Source: an uncultured Pelagibacteraceae bacterium | GTDB lineage: Bacteria > Pseudomonadota > Alphaproteobacteria > Pelagibacterales > Pelagibacteraceae | Assembly: GCA_902544135.1 (NCBI GenBank) | Contig: CACCBF010000002.1 | Location: forward strand, 40,596-104,595 | Direction: 5' to 3' | Length of the DNA stretch: 64,000 bases | Shown here: positions 1 to 54,815 of the stretch, piece by piece | Layout: each line of letters starts with the position of its first letter | How positions within the stretch are numbered: the stretch's first letter is position 1 | Position numbers and translations under genes: made by a program | Notes under the pieces: model-generated | What the model saw: the letters and a program-made list of their open reading frames with translations, nothing else | Told to the model about the DNA's origin: nothing | Database searches by the model: none

Positions 1-1473
1 GGTAGATATAATGCTTGCATAAGTTGAAGGTCTACCGATTCCAAGCTCTTCGAGTTTTTTTACTAAACTTGCTTCAGAGTATCTTGGCGGGTGTTGAGTA
101 AAATGTTGCTCATCTATTAAAGACTCAATATTTACTAAACCCTTTGTCATAGCTGGTAATATACTTTCATCATCATCTTTATTTTGGTTATTATAGATTT
201 TTAAAAAACCATCAAATTTGAGAACAGAGCCGCTAGCTTTACAAACTGTGTCATTATTATCAGAAGTTACAGTAATTGTATTCCTATCAAATTTCGCAGA
301 TGACATTTGGGAGGACAAAGCTCGACTCCAAATTAAGTCATATAATTTACTTTGATCGGTGCTTAAATATTTTTTAACACTTTGTGGAGTTCTAATTATA
401 TCTGTAGGCCTAATTGCTTCATGAGCTTCTTGTGCATTTTTAGCTTTTTTTCCTGAATAGTTTAGAGAGCTCTCAGGCAAATATTCATTACCAATTTCTT
501 TTTTAATATAGTCTCTAAAAGCTGAGACTGCATCTTTTGACAAATTTGTTCCATCAGTTCTCATATATGTAATTAAACCTATAGTTTCTCCATCTATTTC
601 TATCCCTTGGTAAAGTTTTTGAGCAATTTGCATTGTTCTTGATGCGCCAAAACCTAGTTTACTTGAGGCTGTTTGTTGCAGTGTAGATGTTGTGAAAGGC
701 CCTGAGGGATTTCGATTTATAATTTTACTTGAAATATCGGTAATACTAAATTTTTTTTTATTAATAATTGATATAGCTTTATTTATTTCTTCTTTATTTC
801 TAAAAGAAAATTTTTCTATTTTGTTGTTTTCAAGTTGACTTATACTAGCAGTTATAATTTGATTGTTTTTATCTTTAAATTTAACACTTAGAGTCCAGAA
901 TTCCTCTGGATTGAATGACTCAATTTCATGTTCTCTCTCAGTTATTAACTTTAATGCTACAGACTGAACTCTCCCAGCAGACTTTGAGCCTGGTAATTTA
1001 GTCCAAAGAATAGGTGAAATGTTAAAACCAACTAAGTAGTCCAAAGCACGTCTAGCCATATAAGCATCTACTAACAAAGGTTCAATTTGTCTTGGATTAT
1101 CAATACCATGTAACACGGCTTTTTTTGTAATTTCATTAAAAACAACTCTTTCGATTTCCTTATCTTTTAGAAGTTTTTTTTCATTTAAATACTCTTTTAC
1201 ATGCCATGCTATTGCTTCACCTTCACGATCAGGGTCAGTAGCAAGGATAATTTTAGAGGAGTCTTTTGCTGCATCGGTAATTTCTTTAAGATATTTTTTT
1301 GAAAAACTGTCTACTTCCCACTCCATTTTAAAGTCATGATCAGGATCAACTGAACCATTTTTTGAGGGTAAATCTCTTATATGTCCATAACTTGCTAAAA
1401 CTTTGTAATCATCACCTAAATATTTATTTATGGTTTTTGCTTTAGCAGGACTTTCTACAATCACCAAGTTCAT
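1..1473 (-). CDS. topA: DNA topoisomerase I, N-terminal ~490 aa (gene continues past window start)
   Basis: My own minus-strand translation from ATG at 1473 gives MNLVIVESPAKAKTINKYLGDDYKVLASYGHIRDLP..., a typical TopA Toprim N-terminus. The frame stays open to position 1. It is absent from the ORF track because it runs off the window. Confidence 0.9.
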   Translation of the reverse strand, partial: MNLVIVESPAKAKTINKYLGDDYKVLASYGHIRDLPSKNGSVDPDHDFKMEWEVDSFSKKYLKEITDAAKDSSKIILATDPDREGEAIAWHVKEYLNEKKLLKDKEIERVVFNEITKKAVLHGIDNPRQIEPLLVDAYMARRALDYLVGFNISPILWTKLPGSKSAGRVQSVALKLITEREHEIESFNPEEFWTLSVKFKDKNNQIITASISQLENNKIEKFSFRNKEEINKAISIINKKKFSITDISSKIINRNPSGPFTTSTLQQTASSKLGFGASRTMQIAQKLYQGIEIDGETIGLITYMRTDGTNLSKDAVSAFRDYIKKEIGNEYLPESSLNYSGKKAKNAQEAHEAIRPTDIIRTPQSVKKYLSTDQSKLYDLIWSRALSSQMSSAKFDRNTITVTSDNNDTVCKASGSVLKFDGFLKIYNNQNKDDDESILPAMTKGLVNIESLIDEQHFTQHPPRYSEASLVKKLEELGIGRPSTYASIIST

Positions 1474-37992: not shown

Positions 37993-40098
37993 ATGAATTC
38001 AACTATAGAGACTATTCTTTTATACACAATAGGAGCAGGATTACTATCAATTGTTTACGGTTATCTAACTGGAAAAAATATTTTAAATTCAAGTGCGGGT
38101 AACTCAAAAATGCAAGACATTGCATCCGCTATTCAGATAGGTGCAAAGGCTTATCTTGCAAGACAATATAAGACAATTGCTATCGTTGGTGTTGTGGTAT
38201 TAGTTATTGTAAGTTCTGCTTTTAGTATGCTCGTTGGATTAGGTTATCTAATTGGTGCTACATTATCTGGAATAGCTGGATATGTGGGAATGCTAGTTTC
38301 TGTCCAAGCAAATGTTAGAACCGCAGAAGCATCAAGAAAAGGTCTAGCTAGCGGTCTTTCTGTAGCTTTTAAGTCTGGTGCTGTAACAGGTATGCTTGTT
38401 GCTGGTTTAGCTTTATTGTCAATTGCAGTTTATTATTATTTATTAATTAAATTTAATGTTGAAGAGAGAGAAATTGTAAATGCTCTTGTTGCACTCGGTT
38501 TTGGTGCTTCATTAATATCTATTTTTGCTAGACTAGGTGGAGGGATTTTTACAAAAGGTGCAGATGTTGGAGCAGATCTAGTAGGTAAAGTAGAAGCTGG
38601 AATACCAGAAGATGACCCAAGGAATCCTGCTGTTATAGCCGACAATGTTGGCGACAATGTTGGTGATTGTGCAGGAATGGCAGCGGATTTATTTGAAACT
38701 TACGCTGTAACAATCGTTGCAACAATGGTTTTATCCTCAATTTTTTTCCCAGGTGACTTATCAATGATGATTTACCCTTTAACTATTGGTGGTGCCTGTA
38801 TTCTAACATCAATAATTGGAACCTTTTTTGTAAAACTCGGTGGTAGTAAAAATGTTATGGGGGCTTTATACAAAGGATTTGTTGTTTCTGCTTTGACTTC
38901 ATTAATAATTCTATATCCAGTCACAGACTTTGTTTTGGGTTTAGATAAATCTTATGATCTTAATAATAAGTCCTTCACAGGCATGAGTTTGTATTACTGT
39001 GGGGTAATTGGATTAATTATAACAGGTTTATTAATTTGGGTAACTGAATATTACACAGGAACTAATTATAGACCTGTAAGAAGTGTTGCTCATTCATCAA
39101 CAACAGGACATGGTACTAATGTGATACAAGGTTTAGCTATTTCGTTAGAGGCTACTGCTATACCAGCACTAATTATAGTTACAGGTATTTTACTTACTAA
39201 TCATATTGCTGGTTTATATGGAATCGCTATAGCTGTAACAACTATGTTGGCATTAGCAGGTATGGTTGTAGCTTTAGATGCCTATGGACCGGTTACCGAT
39301 AATGCCGGTGGTATTGCGGAAATGTCCAAGTTACCAAACAATGTTAGAAAAACTACTGATGCTTTAGATGCTGTAGGAAATACAACTAAAGCTGTAACAA
39401 AAGGTTACGCAATAGGTTCTGCAGGATTAGGTGCTTTAGTTTTGTTTGCAGCTTATACTGAAGATATTAAACATTTTTCAAAAGAGGCTGGATCAAAATT
39501 AGAAGGTATCGTAGTGACATTTGATCTATCTAATCCTTATGTTGTAGTAGGTTTATTAATCGGTGGAATGCTTCCATATTTATTTGGATCAATGGGTATG
39601 CAGGCTGTGGGTAGAGCAGGTGGTGCTGTAGTGATAGAAGTTAGAAGACAATTCAAGAAGTACCCAGGTATTATGAAAAGAAAACAAAAACCTGATTACG
39701 CAAAGTTAGTTGATTTATTAACAGTTGCAGCAATCAAAGAAATGATTATTCCATCTCTACTTCCCGTACTATCGCCCATAGTTTTATATTTTGTTATATT
39801 TTCGATTGGTGGTCAAGTGGCAGCATTAGCCTCAGTTGGGGCAATGTTGTTAGGCGTAATAATTACAGGTTTGTTTGTGGCTGTATCAATGACAGCTGGT
39901 GGTGGCGCATGGGACAACGCCAAGAAATATATTGAAGATGGAAATCATGGAGGCAAAGGTTCAGAAGCTCACAAAGCCGCTGTAACTGGAGATACAGTTG
40001 GAGATCCTTATAAAGATACAGCTGGTCCCGCGGTAAATCCAATGATAAAGATAACAAATATTGTTGCTCTACTATTGTTGGCTGTCATCGCTGGTTAA
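37993..40098 (+). CDS. hppA: Membrane-bound proton-translocating pyrophosphatase
   Basis: 701 aa polytopic protein with [23 protein letters not shown] has Lys at the A/K position, which indicates the K+-independent type. Confidence 0.97.
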
Positions 40099-44456: not shown

Positions 44457-45258
44457 GAAAATAAGTAAGAATAAATTTTTTTAGTACATTCAAGACTTTA
44501 TCAGCTTCTTCTAAGAGCATCATATGCCCACAATTGTCAATTATTTCAATTTTACTTCCATCTATTAAATCTGCTAATTTTTTTCCCTCCTTTACAGGAC
44601 ACATCTTGTCTCCATTCGCCAAAATAGATAAAGTAGGAATCTTTATTTCTTTGGCAGCCTTAAAACCATTCTTGTAATTATCACAAGCTCTAAAATCTAT
44701 TCCTAATGTATTTTTGATTGTTCTGGACTTAGCTAGCATTCCACCTGTATTGATGTGATACAAACCTGGAACTGGGTGTCCACCAAAGTGTCCAGCTGGA
44801 CCATGTGCCCAGTCCATCATCAAATCAACAGCTTTCGGATCATCATTTTCTGCTAGAGACAATAATTCTGGATTCATAGGAATTGCTCCAGCGCCACCCA
44901 TTAAACTTAGTGTTTTTATTTTTTTTGGAAACCTAAATGCACATTCTAAAATAACCAAACATCCTTGAGAATGACCAACTAGAGATGCCTCTTTATAACC
45001 TACTGCATCTATGACATCACTAATCCAATCAGCCATATCCTCTATTGTTTTTAAACTTTCACCTCCTGAAAGACCATGTCCAGGCATATCTAAAGCTAAA
45101 ACACTATAACCATGAAAAGCAAAATACCTAGTTTGGAGTACCCAAGTCATATGTGTTAATCCACTACCATGAACAAAAATAATCAGTGGTTTTTTTTTGT
45201 CGAAAGGTCGTCCACCTGTAGAAGCAAAAACTTCTACACCATTAACTTTAAACTTCAT
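44440..45258 (-). CDS. Alpha/beta-fold hydrolase
   Basis: HGSG oxyanion region, nucleophile elbow GHSQGC and a C-terminal GH motif. Overlaps metY by 4 nt. Confidence 0.8.
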   Translation of the reverse strand: MKFKVNGVEVFASTGGRPFDKKKPLIIFVHGSGLTHMTWVLQTRYFAFHGYSVLALDMPGHGLSGGESLKTIEDMADWISDVIDAVGYKEASLVGHSQGCLVILECAFRFPKKIKTLSLMGGAGAIPMNPELLSLAENDDPKAVDLMMDWAHGPAGHFGGHPVPGLYHINTGGMLAKSRTIKNTLGIDFRACDNYKNGFKAAKEIKIPTLSILANGDKMCPVKEGKKLADLIDGSKIEIIDNCGHMMLLEEADKVLNVLKKFILTYFPIKKN

Positions 45259-52340: not shown

Positions 52341-52619
52341 CTAAATAGATACTTTTTCAGATCTAAGTAATTTGAGCTTTTGCTTGATTCCACCTTTCCC
52401 AGAATAACCTCCAAGACCTCCATCAGACCTAATCACTCTATGACAGGGTATTTTTGGAGCATATGGGTTTTTTGCACAAGCATTTGCGACTGCACGGGCT
52501 GCTTTAGGTTTTTTAATTGCAATTGCTACTTGTTTATATGTTTTCACGCTGCCTTTAGGGATAGTAATTAGGTATTTCCAAACTCTTAGTTGAAATTTTG
52601 TTCCAAGTAGGGATCTCAT
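52341..52619 (-). CDS. ogt: Methylated-DNA-protein-cysteine methyltransferase, C-terminal (DNA-binding/active-site) domain only
   Basis: 92 aa starting at the FQLRVW helix, with an intact PCHRVIRSDGGLGGY active site. There is no N-terminal domain, and an in-frame stop lies 7 codons upstream of the ATG. Confidence 0.75.
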   Translation of the reverse strand: MRSLLGTKFQLRVWKYLITIPKGSVKTYKQVAIAIKKPKAARAVANACAKNPYAPKIPCHRVIRSDGGLGGYSGKGGIKQKLKLLRSEKVSI

Positions 52620-52620
52620 A

Positions 52621-52664
52621 AAAAAAACCCTGATTCTTTACACTTTTTACGGTGCAAAGATCAG
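52621..52664 (-). terminator. Rho-independent terminator (minus strand)
   Basis: On the minus strand, CUGAUCUUUGCAC-CGUAAAAA-GUGUAAAGAAUCAG forms 13 bp with one bulge and one G-U pair. GG and then eight U follow, with the last U at 52620. The G-U pair would be a C-A mismatch on the plus strand. Confidence 0.6.
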
Positions 52665-52804
52665 AATTTTATGGCTCGTCGTTTTATGCGCTACCGCCGA
52701 ACCGACCACCCTGTATGTTTAGCGCTGCTTTACAGGGTTTTCTGCCCTCCAGACTTAAACCTCTCGGCCTTTCTCTGGCTGGCCAGTTAAGAGTTGCCTC
52801 TTAA
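52665..52804 (-). ncRNA. Candidate structured RNA of unidentified class (sRNA or cis-regulatory leader)
   Basis: 70/130 G+C by hand count over 52671-52800, set in roughly 30% GC DNA. Two GNRA-capped hairpins (GCAA, GAGA), nested helices and a possible pseudoknot. G-U pairs favour the minus strand. See findings. Confidence 0.5.
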
Positions 52805-52901
52805 GTTATAATTACATTACCAGACAGTAATTGAAATTGTTATCACTAAATAGTTGTTTTTCATAATTAAATGATTTTTCTGTGAATTTCGGGGATAACT
52901 C

Positions 52902-53075
52902 CTATTTTGTAAGCAATATTAGGTAACTTACAAAAAATATAACAGCCATACTTGATAGAAATATTGTATTTATACTTTTGCCAGTATTTTTATACTGAAT
53001 AACACTTAAAATAATAAATCCAATTGAACTTATCAAAAACCATACCGCAGGTATTTCTCCATCAATTGAACCCAT
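52902..53075 (-). CDS. Hypothetical 57-aa two-TM membrane protein (below the ORF-track cutoff)
   Basis: My own translation gives MGSIDGEIPAVWFLISSIGFIILSVIQYKNTGKSINTIFLSSMAVIFFVSYLILLTK. It has two hydrophobic helices separated by a basic loop. No homology is recognised. Confidence 0.35.
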   Translation of the reverse strand: MGSIDGEIPAVWFLISSIGFIILSVIQYKNTGKSINTIFLSSMAVIFFVSYLILLTK

Positions 53076-53155
53076 ATATTTTAATTTAAACTATTGACAT
53101 TAAAAATCACTTGATATATTACTAATGATAATTAATTGTTATCAATAGTAATTAT

Positions 53156-54109
53156 ATGAATGAACTGACAACAGACCTAAAATCGCTTCATGAGGCAACT
53201 TTAAATAATCTCAAAAGCTCTAAAGCAAATAATACTCTAAGAGCTTATAAGTCGGACTTTAAAGACTTTGGAGCTTTTTGTGCAAAACATAGATTAAATT
53301 CATTACCAACAGAGCCGAAAATAGTTTCATTGTACCTTACCCATCTCTCTAAAAACTCAAAAATAAGCACTTTAAGACGAAGATTAGTATCAATAAGCAT
53401 GGTTCATAGGCTTAAAGGGCATTATCTAGACACTAAACATCCAATCATCGTTGAAAATTTAATGGGAATAAGAAGGGTCAAAGGAAGTATTCAGAAAGGT
53501 AAAAAACCTATATTAATCAATCATTTAAAATTAATTATTAATGTAATAAATGAACAAAAAACTGAAGAAATAAAAAGACTTAGAGACAAATCAATAATCT
53601 TAATTGGCTTTGGAGGAGGCTTTAGAAGAACAGAGCTCATTTCAATTGATCATGAGGATTTAGAATTTGTTCCTGAGGGTCTAAAAATCACTATTAAAAA
53701 ATCAAAAACTGACCAATTCGGAGAAGGGATGACTAAAGGACTACCCTACTTTGATAATGAAATTTACTGTCCTGTTTCAAATCTAAAAAAATGGTTGGAA
53801 ATTTCTAAAATTAAGTCTGGACCTATTTTTAGAAGATTTTCTAAGGGTTTATCATTAACGGACAAAAGATTAACTGACCAATCTGTAGTTTTATTAATGA
53901 AAGAGTATTTAAGGTTAGCAGGAATCGAAAACAAAAATTTTGCAGGTCATAGTTTAAGGTCAGGTTTTGCAACAGTAGCTGCTGAGTCTGGGGCTGATGA
54001 AAGAAGTATTATGGCAATGACAGGCCATAAAACAACACAAATGGTTAGAAGATATATTAGAGAAGCAAATATATTCAAAAATAATGCTCTTAGTAAAATT
54101 AAAATTTAA
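53156..54109 (+). CDS. Tyrosine-type site-specific recombinase/integrase
   Basis: 317 aa with an N-terminal SAM-like domain (LRAYKSDFKDFGAFC). Catalytic residues are R (GGFRRTEL), K (KSKTDQFGEG), HxxR (GHSLRSG), H (GHKTT) and Y (RRYIRE). Confidence 0.9.
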   Translation: MNELTTDLKSLHEATLNNLKSSKANNTLRAYKSDFKDFGAFCAKHRLNSLPTEPKIVSLYLTHLSKNSKISTLRRRLVSISMVHRLKGHYLDTKHPIIVENLMGIRRVKGSIQKGKKPILINHLKLIINVINEQKTEEIKRLRDKSIILIGFGGGFRRTELISIDHEDLEFVPEGLKITIKKSKTDQFGEGMTKGLPYFDNEIYCPVSNLKKWLEISKIKSGPIFRRFSKGLSLTDKRLTDQSVVLLMKEYLRLAGIENKNFAGHSLRSGFATVAAESGADERSIMAMTGHKTTQMVRRYIREANIFKNNALSKIKI

Positions 54110-54815
54110 GCTTAGAAAAGTAATAGGAAAAAATATTAAACTTTTTATTATAGAATATTTCAAATAATTCTTTTTTGTATTCTTTGAAGTTCCATTTTCC
54201 TTTAATCACAGCTGTACAAATATAGGGATATACAGAACTATCGTAGTGAAATTTCCCTCTTTTTTTATCTATATTTGAGTCAAACGAACAAAGTGAAACT
54301 AGATCTGCAAGATATTTTTTTGAAGTATTGGCTTCAAATTCCCAAATGTTATCGCCTGGAACTGTCTTATAAATATATTTAAGAGTTTTAACCTTAATAA
54401 CTGTTGGTTGAATTGAAAATAATTGTTTATCAGGATTTTTAAATAACTTTTCATGCAAATTTGACTTATCTAAATTTTCAAAAGCTCTAACTAATTTAAT
54501 TAATTCACATTTTTCATTTTTAATTAATTTTATATACTCATTTATTATTGTAAAATTAGGTTCTTTATATAAAAACATATCCTCGTGACAAAAGAGGACA
54601 ATTTCATTATCATCGATATCGTTTAAACAGGAAAGAATTCTATTTTTGTAGGTCAGTTCGTCATTGTATTTAATCACAAGATAATCATCTCTAAATGATG
54701 AATTTGAATTTAATAAACAAATCTTTTCAAAACCATGTAAAAATTTATCAGTTTGTTGATGCCAATATTTCCATACCCAGGAATAATCACTGTGAGTGTA
54801 CACGAGTATTTTCAT
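54099..54815 (-). CDS. Hypothetical protein, possibly a GT-A-like glycosyltransferase accessory
   Basis: 238-aa ORF arranged as an operon with the upstream GT gene at a 5-nt gap. The VLFCHEDMF stretch resembles a DxD-like region. No firm family assignment. Confidence 0.65.
   Translation of the reverse strand: MKILVYTHSDYSWVWKYWHQQTDKFLHGFEKICLLNSNSSFRDDYLVIKYNDELTYKNRILSCLNDIDDNEIVLFCHEDMFLYKEPNFTIINEYIKLIKNEKCELIKLVRAFENLDKSNLHEKLFKNPDKQLFSIQPTVIKVKTLKYIYKTVPGDNIWEFEANTSKKYLADLVSLCSFDSNIDKKRGKFHYDSSVYPYICTAVIKGKWNFKEYKKELFEIFYNKKFNIFSYYFSKLKF

Follow-up and report, generated by a model that had tools for sequence, protein, structure and literature searches.

Marine bacteria of the SAR11 group, which outnumber every other bacterial clade in the sea, carry a structured RNA named IMES-2. 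In ocean metatranscriptomes, few non-ribosomal RNAs are more abundant than this one, and its family has had a curated entry in Rfam since about 2009. IMES-2 is said to have been described from marine sequences by Weinberg, Perreault, Meyer and Breaker in Nature in 2009, and Shi, Tyson and DeLong reportedly saw it in marine metatranscriptomes in the same journal and year. Both of these papers are said to have found it very abundant and to have assigned no function to it. To our knowledge, IMES-2 is still an orphan RNA, and we know of no structural or genetic data on it. A full-text literature search for IMES-2 found nothing, and the RNA is not mentioned in papers on SAR11 that deal with structured RNAs, with hypervariable regions or with the mapping of TSS in situ.

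IMES-2 resembles several other orphan RNAs (raiA motif RNA, OLE, ROOL/GOLLD and Yfr103). Like IMES-2 as it is predicted here, these are stand-alone genes with their own promoter and terminator, and they share with it an elaborate tertiary structure, a reported abundance and the lack of a known function. IMES-2 differs from them in being far smaller (with a core of ~141 nt) and, in the present data, in being found in Pelagibacteraceae only. Kissing loops are reported to give tertiary or quaternary structure to several of these orphan structured RNAs (PMC12286853, PMC12968392). In transcription-attenuating riboswitches, a conserved fold precedes an intrinsic terminator, after which a coding sequence starts, an order that is also seen in one of the two genomic contexts of IMES-2 (class A, see below). 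The tRNA and tmRNA genes that serve as integrase targets are, like IMES-2, small conserved RNA genes that border a variable gene cluster and have a tyrosine recombinase as neighbor. The IMES-2 copy analyzed here is found in a 64-kb stretch of DNA from an uncultured Pelagibacteraceae bacterium; this whole stretch is referred to below as the window.

Identification of the G+C-rich element

When the entire window was searched with the Rfam 15 models at their curated thresholds, four matches were obtained, three to tRNAs and one to IMES-2 (RF02035). The IMES-2 match is on the minus strand at 52811..52671 and scores 150.3 bits, compared with a gathering score of 54.7 (cmscan, E-value: 3.1e-39). The alignment spans model positions 1-141 of 141, is untruncated and has no indel, and only two non-standard pairs are flagged in it. 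A permissive Rfam scan of positions 52400-53100 (E-value of 10 or less) again recovered IMES-2 (E-value: 3.4e-41), the other match being noise (Hatchet, E-value: 7.8). The element at 52671-52811 is IMES-2 in its full length, and this identification is as good as certain. It is an unannotated member of a known Rfam family and not a new RNA class. It shares with the family all 141 consensus positions, each of the four hairpin domains, both tetraloops (GCAA and GAGA), the conserved sequences of loops L3 and L4 and the setting in a marine SAR11-type genome, and no material difference from the family was found.

A preliminary description of this locus had assigned the RNA to an unidentified class and had proposed an Rfam scan, naming a significant match as the refuting outcome. 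The scan returned such a match over the full length of RF02035, and the designation was wrong. The same description stated that the element is not a tmRNA, SRP RNA or RNase P RNA, which agrees with the Rfam results. No tRNA, tmRNA, SRP RNA or RNase P RNA was found at the locus with Rfam and ARAGORN, the only three tRNAs being located elsewhere in the window.

Positions 52671-52800 contain 70 G+C in 130 nt, exactly as had been counted by hand, and this is the most G+C-rich 130-nt interval of the 64 kb (the runner-up has 63, and the overall G+C content is 28.7%). The accompanying statement that only the three tRNAs reach that composition is inaccurate, as several non-tRNA intervals reach 62-63 G+C in 130 nt. 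A 196-nt segment of the minus strand folds with -70 kcal/mol (z-score: -6.1), a value that was equalled by none of 200 shuffled sequences. The plus strand of the same segment folds less well (-52.9 kcal/mol, z-score: -3.1). Both this difference and the orientation of the Rfam match bear out the earlier placement of a structured RNA on the minus strand.

Homologues and distribution

Homologues were collected with two sequence patterns. A pattern for the 3' half of the RNA gave at least 119 matches in a collection of species-representative genomes, each from a different assembly, and a pattern for the 5' half gave at least 120 contigs in a scan of marine metagenomes. Among the matches listed, 117 of 119 are from Pelagibacteraceae or Pelagibacter assemblies; the other two are chance matches. 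IMES-2 is a single-copy gene and, among the matches listed in these scans, is restricted to Pelagibacteraceae. Two pattern scans of IMG/VR gave no true IMES-2, the one match (L120) being due to chance and, like the off-target genome match, lacking the 5' half, and the sole match in GenBank phages was a chance match of 38 nt in AT-rich sequence. A phage or mobile origin of IMES-2 was considered and rejected on the basis of these viral searches.

Conserved fold of the RNA

The RNA is folded into four hairpin domains, P1 to P4, the coordinates of which are given in Table 1 along with those of the flanking elements and genes. P1 (UUAAGAG-GCAA-CUCUUAA) has compensatory changes in three of its seven pairs (AU to GC or the reverse). 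P2 has a GAAA/AAG internal loop and ends in a C-GAGA-G hairpin of the GNRA type; the GAAA, CGAGAG and AAG sequences are invariant, and compensatory changes are found in 7/11 and 3/4 of the pairs. In P3, which includes the helix CCCUGU/ACAGGG, all eight pairs have compensatory changes. In P4, seven of nine pairs covary (in one homologue set), and position 7 is a non-canonical G.A pair in 103/103 genome and 82/82 metagenome sequences, with a swap to A.G in one locus (L099) and in the P4-variant group. The loop consensus is AG(U/C)AGCGCU for L3 and GGUAGCGC for L4, and the window carries AGCAGCGCU and GGUAGCGC, respectively.

Table 1. Features of the IMES-2 locus in the window.
Feature	Position	Strand	Evidence or remark
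IMES-2 RNA core, RF02035 model positions 1-141	52671..52811	-	cmscan, covariation, RNAalifold
P1 hairpin, 7 bp, invariant GCAA (GNRA) tetraloop	52787..52804	-	100% of cells paired
P2 composite stem, CUG.CC/GG.CAG then CCAGA/UCUGG	52742..52786	-	covariation
P3 hairpin, 8 bp, 15-nt loop L3 AGCAGCGCUAAACAU	52708..52738	-	covariation
P4 hairpin, 9 positions, 13-nt loop L4 GUAGCGCAUAAAA	52673..52703	-	covariation
L3 half of predicted kissing-loop pseudoknot, GCGCUA	52720..52725	-	pairs with 52688-52693
L4 half of predicted kissing-loop pseudoknot, UAGCGC	52688..52693	-	pairs with 52720-52725
Hairpin of predicted intrinsic terminator, 13 bp and two further potential U.G pairs, bulged A, 8-nt loop	52628..52666	-	folding, covariation
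U8 tract of predicted terminator	52620..52627	-	abuts ATG at 52617-52619
Conserved upstream box CAACTATTTAGTGATA, -35-region or activator-site candidate	52841..52856	-	upstream alignments
TGgTAATGT, putative extended -10-like element	52814..52822	-	register conserved
Mini-MGMT, 92 aa, methylated-DNA-protein-cysteine methyltransferase, C-terminal domain only	52341..52619	-	PF01035 (E-value: 6e-32)
Cre/XerD-like tyrosine recombinase, 317 aa, divergent neighbor	53156..54109	+	PF00589, PF02899

The Rfam nested structure is strongly conserved in both homologue sets. The genome set (103 distinct homologues) has pairing in 95.3% of cells and double changes in 24/45 pairs; these sequences have 510 compensatory cells, compared with 134 in column shuffles (0/500 of which reach 510), and slid controls are only 31-40% paired. 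The values for 82 distinct metagenome homologues are 94.7% of cells paired and 30/45 pairs covarying. RNAalifold finds the same four domains without use of the Rfam structure. IMES-2 is under purifying selection across more than 200 sequences and hence is not in decay.

The helices that had been drawn by hand from the minus strand (P1, CCAGA/UCUGG with its C-GAGA-G hairpin and CCCUGU/ACAGGG) all coincide with the Rfam consensus structure, and the covariation check that was proposed for them reveals compensatory substitutions in all four hairpin domains. A competing hairpin, GGG-CAGAAAA-CCC, had also been suggested, but it is not a conserved feature: the CCC serves as the 5' arm of P3 and for this reason varies between C, U, G and A among the homologues.

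Pairing between loops L3 and L4

As the search pattern used for the genome set fixed both loops, pairing between them was tested on the metagenome set obtained with the 5'-half pattern. In 81 distinct full-length sequences, the two loops vary in concert. Counts for the two pairs at the center are CG:63/UA:18/AU:1 and GC:65/AU:14/UA:3, and no cell is unpaired. The L3-L4 pairing has 36 compensatory cells, compared with 6.4 in shuffles (0/500 as high). At least six complementary loop types occur, including GCGC/GCGC, GCUC/GAGC, GUGC/GCAC, GUAC/GUAC, GAAC/GUUC, GUUC/GAAC and GCAC/GUGC. Among the matches listed, all of the loop-variant RNAs belong to the second genomic context (class B).

This covariation argues that the L3-L4 pairing is real, and it fits an intramolecular contact and an intermolecular contact equally well. 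The pairing of GCGCUA with UAGCGC had been proposed earlier as part of a possible H-type pseudoknot. The pairing itself stands and the H-type topology does not, as the two strands are the loops of two hairpins and would form a kissing interaction.

Terminator and upstream elements

The hairpin that follows the RNA pairs 52652-52664 with 52630-52643 (-20.1 kcal/mol, z-score: -4.8), and the earlier account of a 13-bp terminator followed by eight U residues, with the AUG of an ogt-like gene on the very next base, is accurate. A hairpin and T-run are found downstream of IMES-2 in every homologue among the matches listed. In 81 class A homologues, 97.4% of the cells of the hairpin are paired and five pairs have double changes, with 38 compensatory cells compared with 13 in shuffles. 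The hairpin and U8 tract are predicted to be a Rho-independent terminator that belongs to IMES-2. A generic scanner for promoters and terminators did not detect the terminator, which escaped it because of the bulge and 8-nt loop, and it called no convincing promoter here.

Two conserved elements are located upstream of the RNA. The sequence [AG]GTGAT, within CAAC-N5-AGTGATA, is present in 226/227 distinct upstream regions from both genomic contexts, and the distance from this box to P1 is 41-44 nt in nearly all of them. The full box has one perfect match in the 64-kb window, while its AGTGATA core alone occurs six times, which is no more than is expected by chance. Closer to the RNA, the register TGnT(A/T)nnnT is kept in the upstream alignments of both classes, although a generic sigma-70 scan did not call it. 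The upstream box is a candidate promoter element and, together with the -10-like element, would place the 5' end of the transcript at ~52805-52811, near the start of the Rfam model.

Genomic contexts

ORF clustering around all loci shows that IMES-2 is found in two contexts only among the matches listed. In class A, to which the window locus belongs, variable glycosyltransferase-type genes are followed by a divergent Cre/XerD-like tyrosine recombinase gene, one or two small membrane ORFs and then IMES-2. On the 3' side of the RNA are the terminator, the mini-MGMT gene (the ogt-like gene of the preliminary description) and convergent genes for EamA, Mem_trans and homoserine dehydrogenase. In class B, IMES-2 and its terminator are preceded by recX, a cysQ-like gene and mnmA and are followed by a convergent membrane-protein gene. 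Contexts were counted for loci with at least 2 kb of upstream and 0.7 kb of downstream sequence. Among the matches listed, the genome loci with this much flank comprise 43 of class A and 21 of class B, and the metagenome contigs comprise 3 and 23, respectively.

The mini-MGMT protein belongs to TIGR00589 (ogt) and aligns with the structure of the Ada C-terminal domain (1sfe, E-value: 5e-23), including the PCHRV active site. The ATG of its gene is located 0-8 nt past the T-run in 79 distinct class A sequences, and in 28 of these the distance is 0 nt. The recombinase scores far below the XerC and XerD equivalog cut-offs, and its PDB matches are XerC-like proteins, XerD and Cre. In searches of viral sequences, its matches show at most 28.7% identity and include none to a SAR11 phage, and IMG/VR gave one weak fragment. 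Exact-match look-ups of the recombinase and MGMT proteins gave no record.

Both the recombinase and MGMT genes are present in 43/43 class A genome loci with enough flank. The strictness of the recombinase, IMES-2 and MGMT trio in class A may reflect a functional link that goes beyond action purely in trans.

Function of IMES-2

The position of IMES-2 directly ahead of an alkyltransferase gene raises the question of whether it is a cis-acting leader, either a riboswitch or a protein-responsive attenuator, that governs terminator read-through into the ogt-like gene. The order of complex fold, terminator and AUG at 0-8 nt is kept in all class A genomes among the matches listed, the ogt-like gene has no room for a promoter of its own, and in some class A sequences the 5' arm of the terminator has an alternative pairing worth up to -9 kcal/mol. 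However, in the mnmA context (21 genome and 23 metagenome loci with enough flank), the gene that comes after the RNA is always convergent with it, so that there is nothing to regulate in cis. The same RNA, upstream box and terminator are present at these loci with nothing co-oriented after them, and IMES-2 is therefore not a dedicated alkyltransferase leader. In addition, at one class A locus (L030) another small ORF separates the terminator from the MGMT gene. Antiterminators were sought by folding nascent transcripts that end before the 3' arm of the terminator, a crude and purely thermodynamic approach, and no conserved antiterminator was found by it in the class A and class B homologues. 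The median gain from upstream pairing of the terminator 5' arm was -2.5 kcal/mol in class A and -1.05 kcal/mol in class B, compared with -11 to -25 kcal/mol for the stability of the terminators themselves (-15.5 kcal/mol in the window). The partner regions are inconsistent, and the alternative pairing is conserved neither in partner nor in strength, amounting to 0 nt and -0.4 kcal/mol in the window. IMES-2 also differs from attenuating riboswitches in that it matches no riboswitch model and has no fixed association with a single downstream gene family. Its hairpins are arranged in a linear row, and there is no closing helix for a terminator or other expression platform to share. A role as a cis-acting leader is for these reasons considered unlikely. 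Of riboswitch types, a permuted or decayed FMN riboswitch (RFN, RF00050) had been raised earlier on the strength of three short blocks that resembled the FMN core. RF00050 has no match on either strand of 52400-53100 at an E-value of 10 or less with permissive filters, which upholds the earlier decision not to call the element RFN. The supposed FMN-like blocks are conserved positions of an intact and strongly covarying IMES-2 (the block CGACGAGCC is the 3' arm of P4), and the resemblance is unsupported. No riboflavin genes are nearby, the downstream gene being that of the MGMT C-terminal domain or, in class B, a convergent gene, and an FMN relic has practically no chance of being correct. Nor does the element appear to be a G+C-rich patch that arose by chance or that encodes the 50-aa ORF on the plus strand (52652-52804). 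Similar antisense ORFs are found in at least 59 loci, but the ORF has no Pfam match and is fragmentary and variable among homologues. Double changes that preserve helices, with 490-510 compensatory cells, are not expected from coding constraint, and the Rfam E-value of 3e-39 counts against both coding and chance. A coding or chance origin was thus ruled out by covariation, and its probability is negligible.

A different kind of link, to the tyrosine recombinase, would make IMES-2 either its chromosomal attachment target, at the edge of the variable glycosyltransferase island, or its RNA cofactor. Small RNA genes are common targets of tyrosine integrases. The recombinase gene is divergent from and adjacent to IMES-2 in each of the 43 class A loci mentioned above and in at least 76 loci overall, with constant orientation. 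Variable glycosyltransferase genes are located beyond it, and the trio of recombinase, IMES-2 and MGMT remains intact where the flanks are rearranged (L006 and L203). Against this, class B genomes have IMES-2 with no recombinase within ~4 kb. The window contains no partial duplicate of IMES-2 and no att-type repeat of 52600-52900, the best matches being chance matches of 12-17 nt (E-values of 0.23 or more). The recombinase gene is found 5' of IMES-2, as opposed to the usual 3' position, which sets IMES-2 further apart from tRNA and tmRNA targets. The viral collections searched contain neither IMES-2 nor any phage protein closely related to the recombinase. Finally, covariation reflects selection on RNA structure, for which a DNA att site has no need. 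A functional tie between IMES-2 and the recombinase is accordingly judged to be very improbable, and it is equally doubtful that IMES-2 takes part, as target or cofactor, in DNA transactions together with a module of recombinase and O6-alkylguanine transferase. If it did so, IMES-2 would help to turn over the hypervariable surface-glycan island of SAR11.

The explanation that best fits the data, and that is considered probable as a whole, is that IMES-2 is a self-contained RNA gene with a compact four-hairpin fold that probably acts in trans, and that the ogt-like gene is expressed through read-through of its terminator. With regard to the separate parts of this reading, we are quite confident that IMES-2 is an independent gene and not ogt-specific, and we hold with moderate confidence that it acts in trans through a bound partner. 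Of the three functions that had been suggested for the element, the orphan small RNA is the best fit; the alkyltransferase leader or riboswitch does not agree with the mnmA loci, and the riboswitch relic is likewise set aside.

The stand-alone gene is envisaged as follows. The upstream elements (52814-52856), the RNA (52671-52811) and the terminator (52620-52666) would together form an RNA gene of ~190 nt. The four hairpin domains of its transcript, of which two end in GNRA loops, would be drawn into a compact tertiary fold by kissing of L3 and L4. Besides the kissing loops, the tertiary ties would come from the two GNRA loops, from internal loops and joints rich in A and from the purine-purine pair. 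Because nearly all of the conserved nucleotides serve structure, such a fold would be expected to bind a protein or small ligand rather than to base-pair with mRNAs. As an abundant structured RNA, IMES-2 would have a role in trans that is independent of the downstream gene. In class A, the ogt-like gene would be transcribed by read-through of the IMES-2 terminator, which is likely because its ATG is so close to the T-run that there is no room for a promoter. The resulting mRNA would be translated without a Shine-Dalgarno sequence, from a U-rich tract.

Significance

Identification of the element as IMES-2 averts a false claim of a new RNA class or a new riboswitch. The two genomic contexts, the upstream box, the terminator and the L3-L4 covariation may go beyond the original description of IMES-2; they are incremental and do not reveal its function. 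They do provide handles by which that function may be found, namely a single-copy, self-contained gene, a candidate promoter box upstream of it, two contexts, predicted kissing loops and a purine-purine pair. A further handle is that, in one of these contexts, a DNA-repair gene would depend on read-through of the IMES-2 terminator.

Genes flanking IMES-2

In the arrangement found in the window (class A), the structured RNA IMES-2 lies between a divergent Cre/XerD-like tyrosine recombinase gene and a gene for a one-domain alkyltransferase (MGMT). The recombinase adjoins IMES-2 divergently in all 43 class-A genome loci with enough flank among the matches listed, and is found beside it at at least 76 loci altogether. 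Its score falls far short of the equivalog cut-offs for XerC/XerD. The genes past the recombinase are variable glycosyltransferase genes, and those on the opposite side are conserved. At two loci (L006 and L203) these flanks are rearranged, yet the recombinase, IMES-2 and MGMT remain together as an intact trio.

The alkyltransferase consists of the DNA-binding and active-site domain alone, with an intact PCHRV motif. In at least 79 distinct species-level sequences, its start codon follows the T-run of the IMES-2 terminator by 0-8 nt, without Shine-Dalgarno spacing.

Small ORFs predicted to encode membrane proteins, belonging to families c6 and c11 (54-59 aa) and c25 (157 aa), occupy the interval that separates IMES-2 from the recombinase. 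Apart from a weak DUF4131 hint, no family match was found for these three families. In one locus (L030), a c6 homologue is instead located 3' of the IMES-2 terminator and ahead of MGMT (168..384 relative to IMES-2).

Features in and around the IMES-2 region of the window
Feature	Position	Strand	Remark
G.A pair, P4 position 7	52679 and 52697	-	conserved, non-canonical
Alkyltransferase, 92 aa	52341-52619	-	C-terminal domain only
Box CAAC-N5-AGTGATA	52841-52856	-	accompanies IMES-2
Small predicted membrane ORF	52902-53075	-	recombinase/IMES-2 gap
Cre/XerD-like tyrosine recombinase, 317 aa	53156-54109	+	divergent from IMES-2
238-aa ORF	54099-54815	-	convergent with recombinase gene

The 238-aa ORF overlaps the 3' end of the recombinase gene by 11 nt and has no Pfam or NCBIfam matches. 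Adjacent to this ORF, a 706-aa protein shows a weak GT4 glycosyltransferase signature. Elsewhere in the window, non-tRNA 130-nt stretches with 62-63/130 G+C are located at 38556-38687, 39877-40033 and 44765-44901.

Contig ends at IMES-2

Among the matches listed, 37 of the 120 metagenome contigs (L121-L240) stop within or just beside IMES-2, typically 30-80 nt before its 3' end. Assembly was likely disrupted by a near-identical IMES-2 5' half common to co-occurring genomes with differing flanks.

Upstream box and P4 pair

The upstream box accompanies IMES-2 both in class A and in class B (where IMES-2 lies between mnmA and a convergent membrane gene), and its full sequence has one perfect match within the 64-kb window. 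This box could be either a variant of the -35 region or a sequence recognised by a dedicated transcription factor.

Within IMES-2, the G.A pair of the fourth hairpin (P4) is universally conserved among the homologues aligned. The pair is reversed to A.G in L099, and a class-B variant group (L125, L131, L135 and others) has a tandem A.G/A.A at the same site, which co-occurs with GUAC-type kissing loops (the paired loops of hairpins 3 and 4). The P4 pair may be a site of protein contact or tertiary contact.
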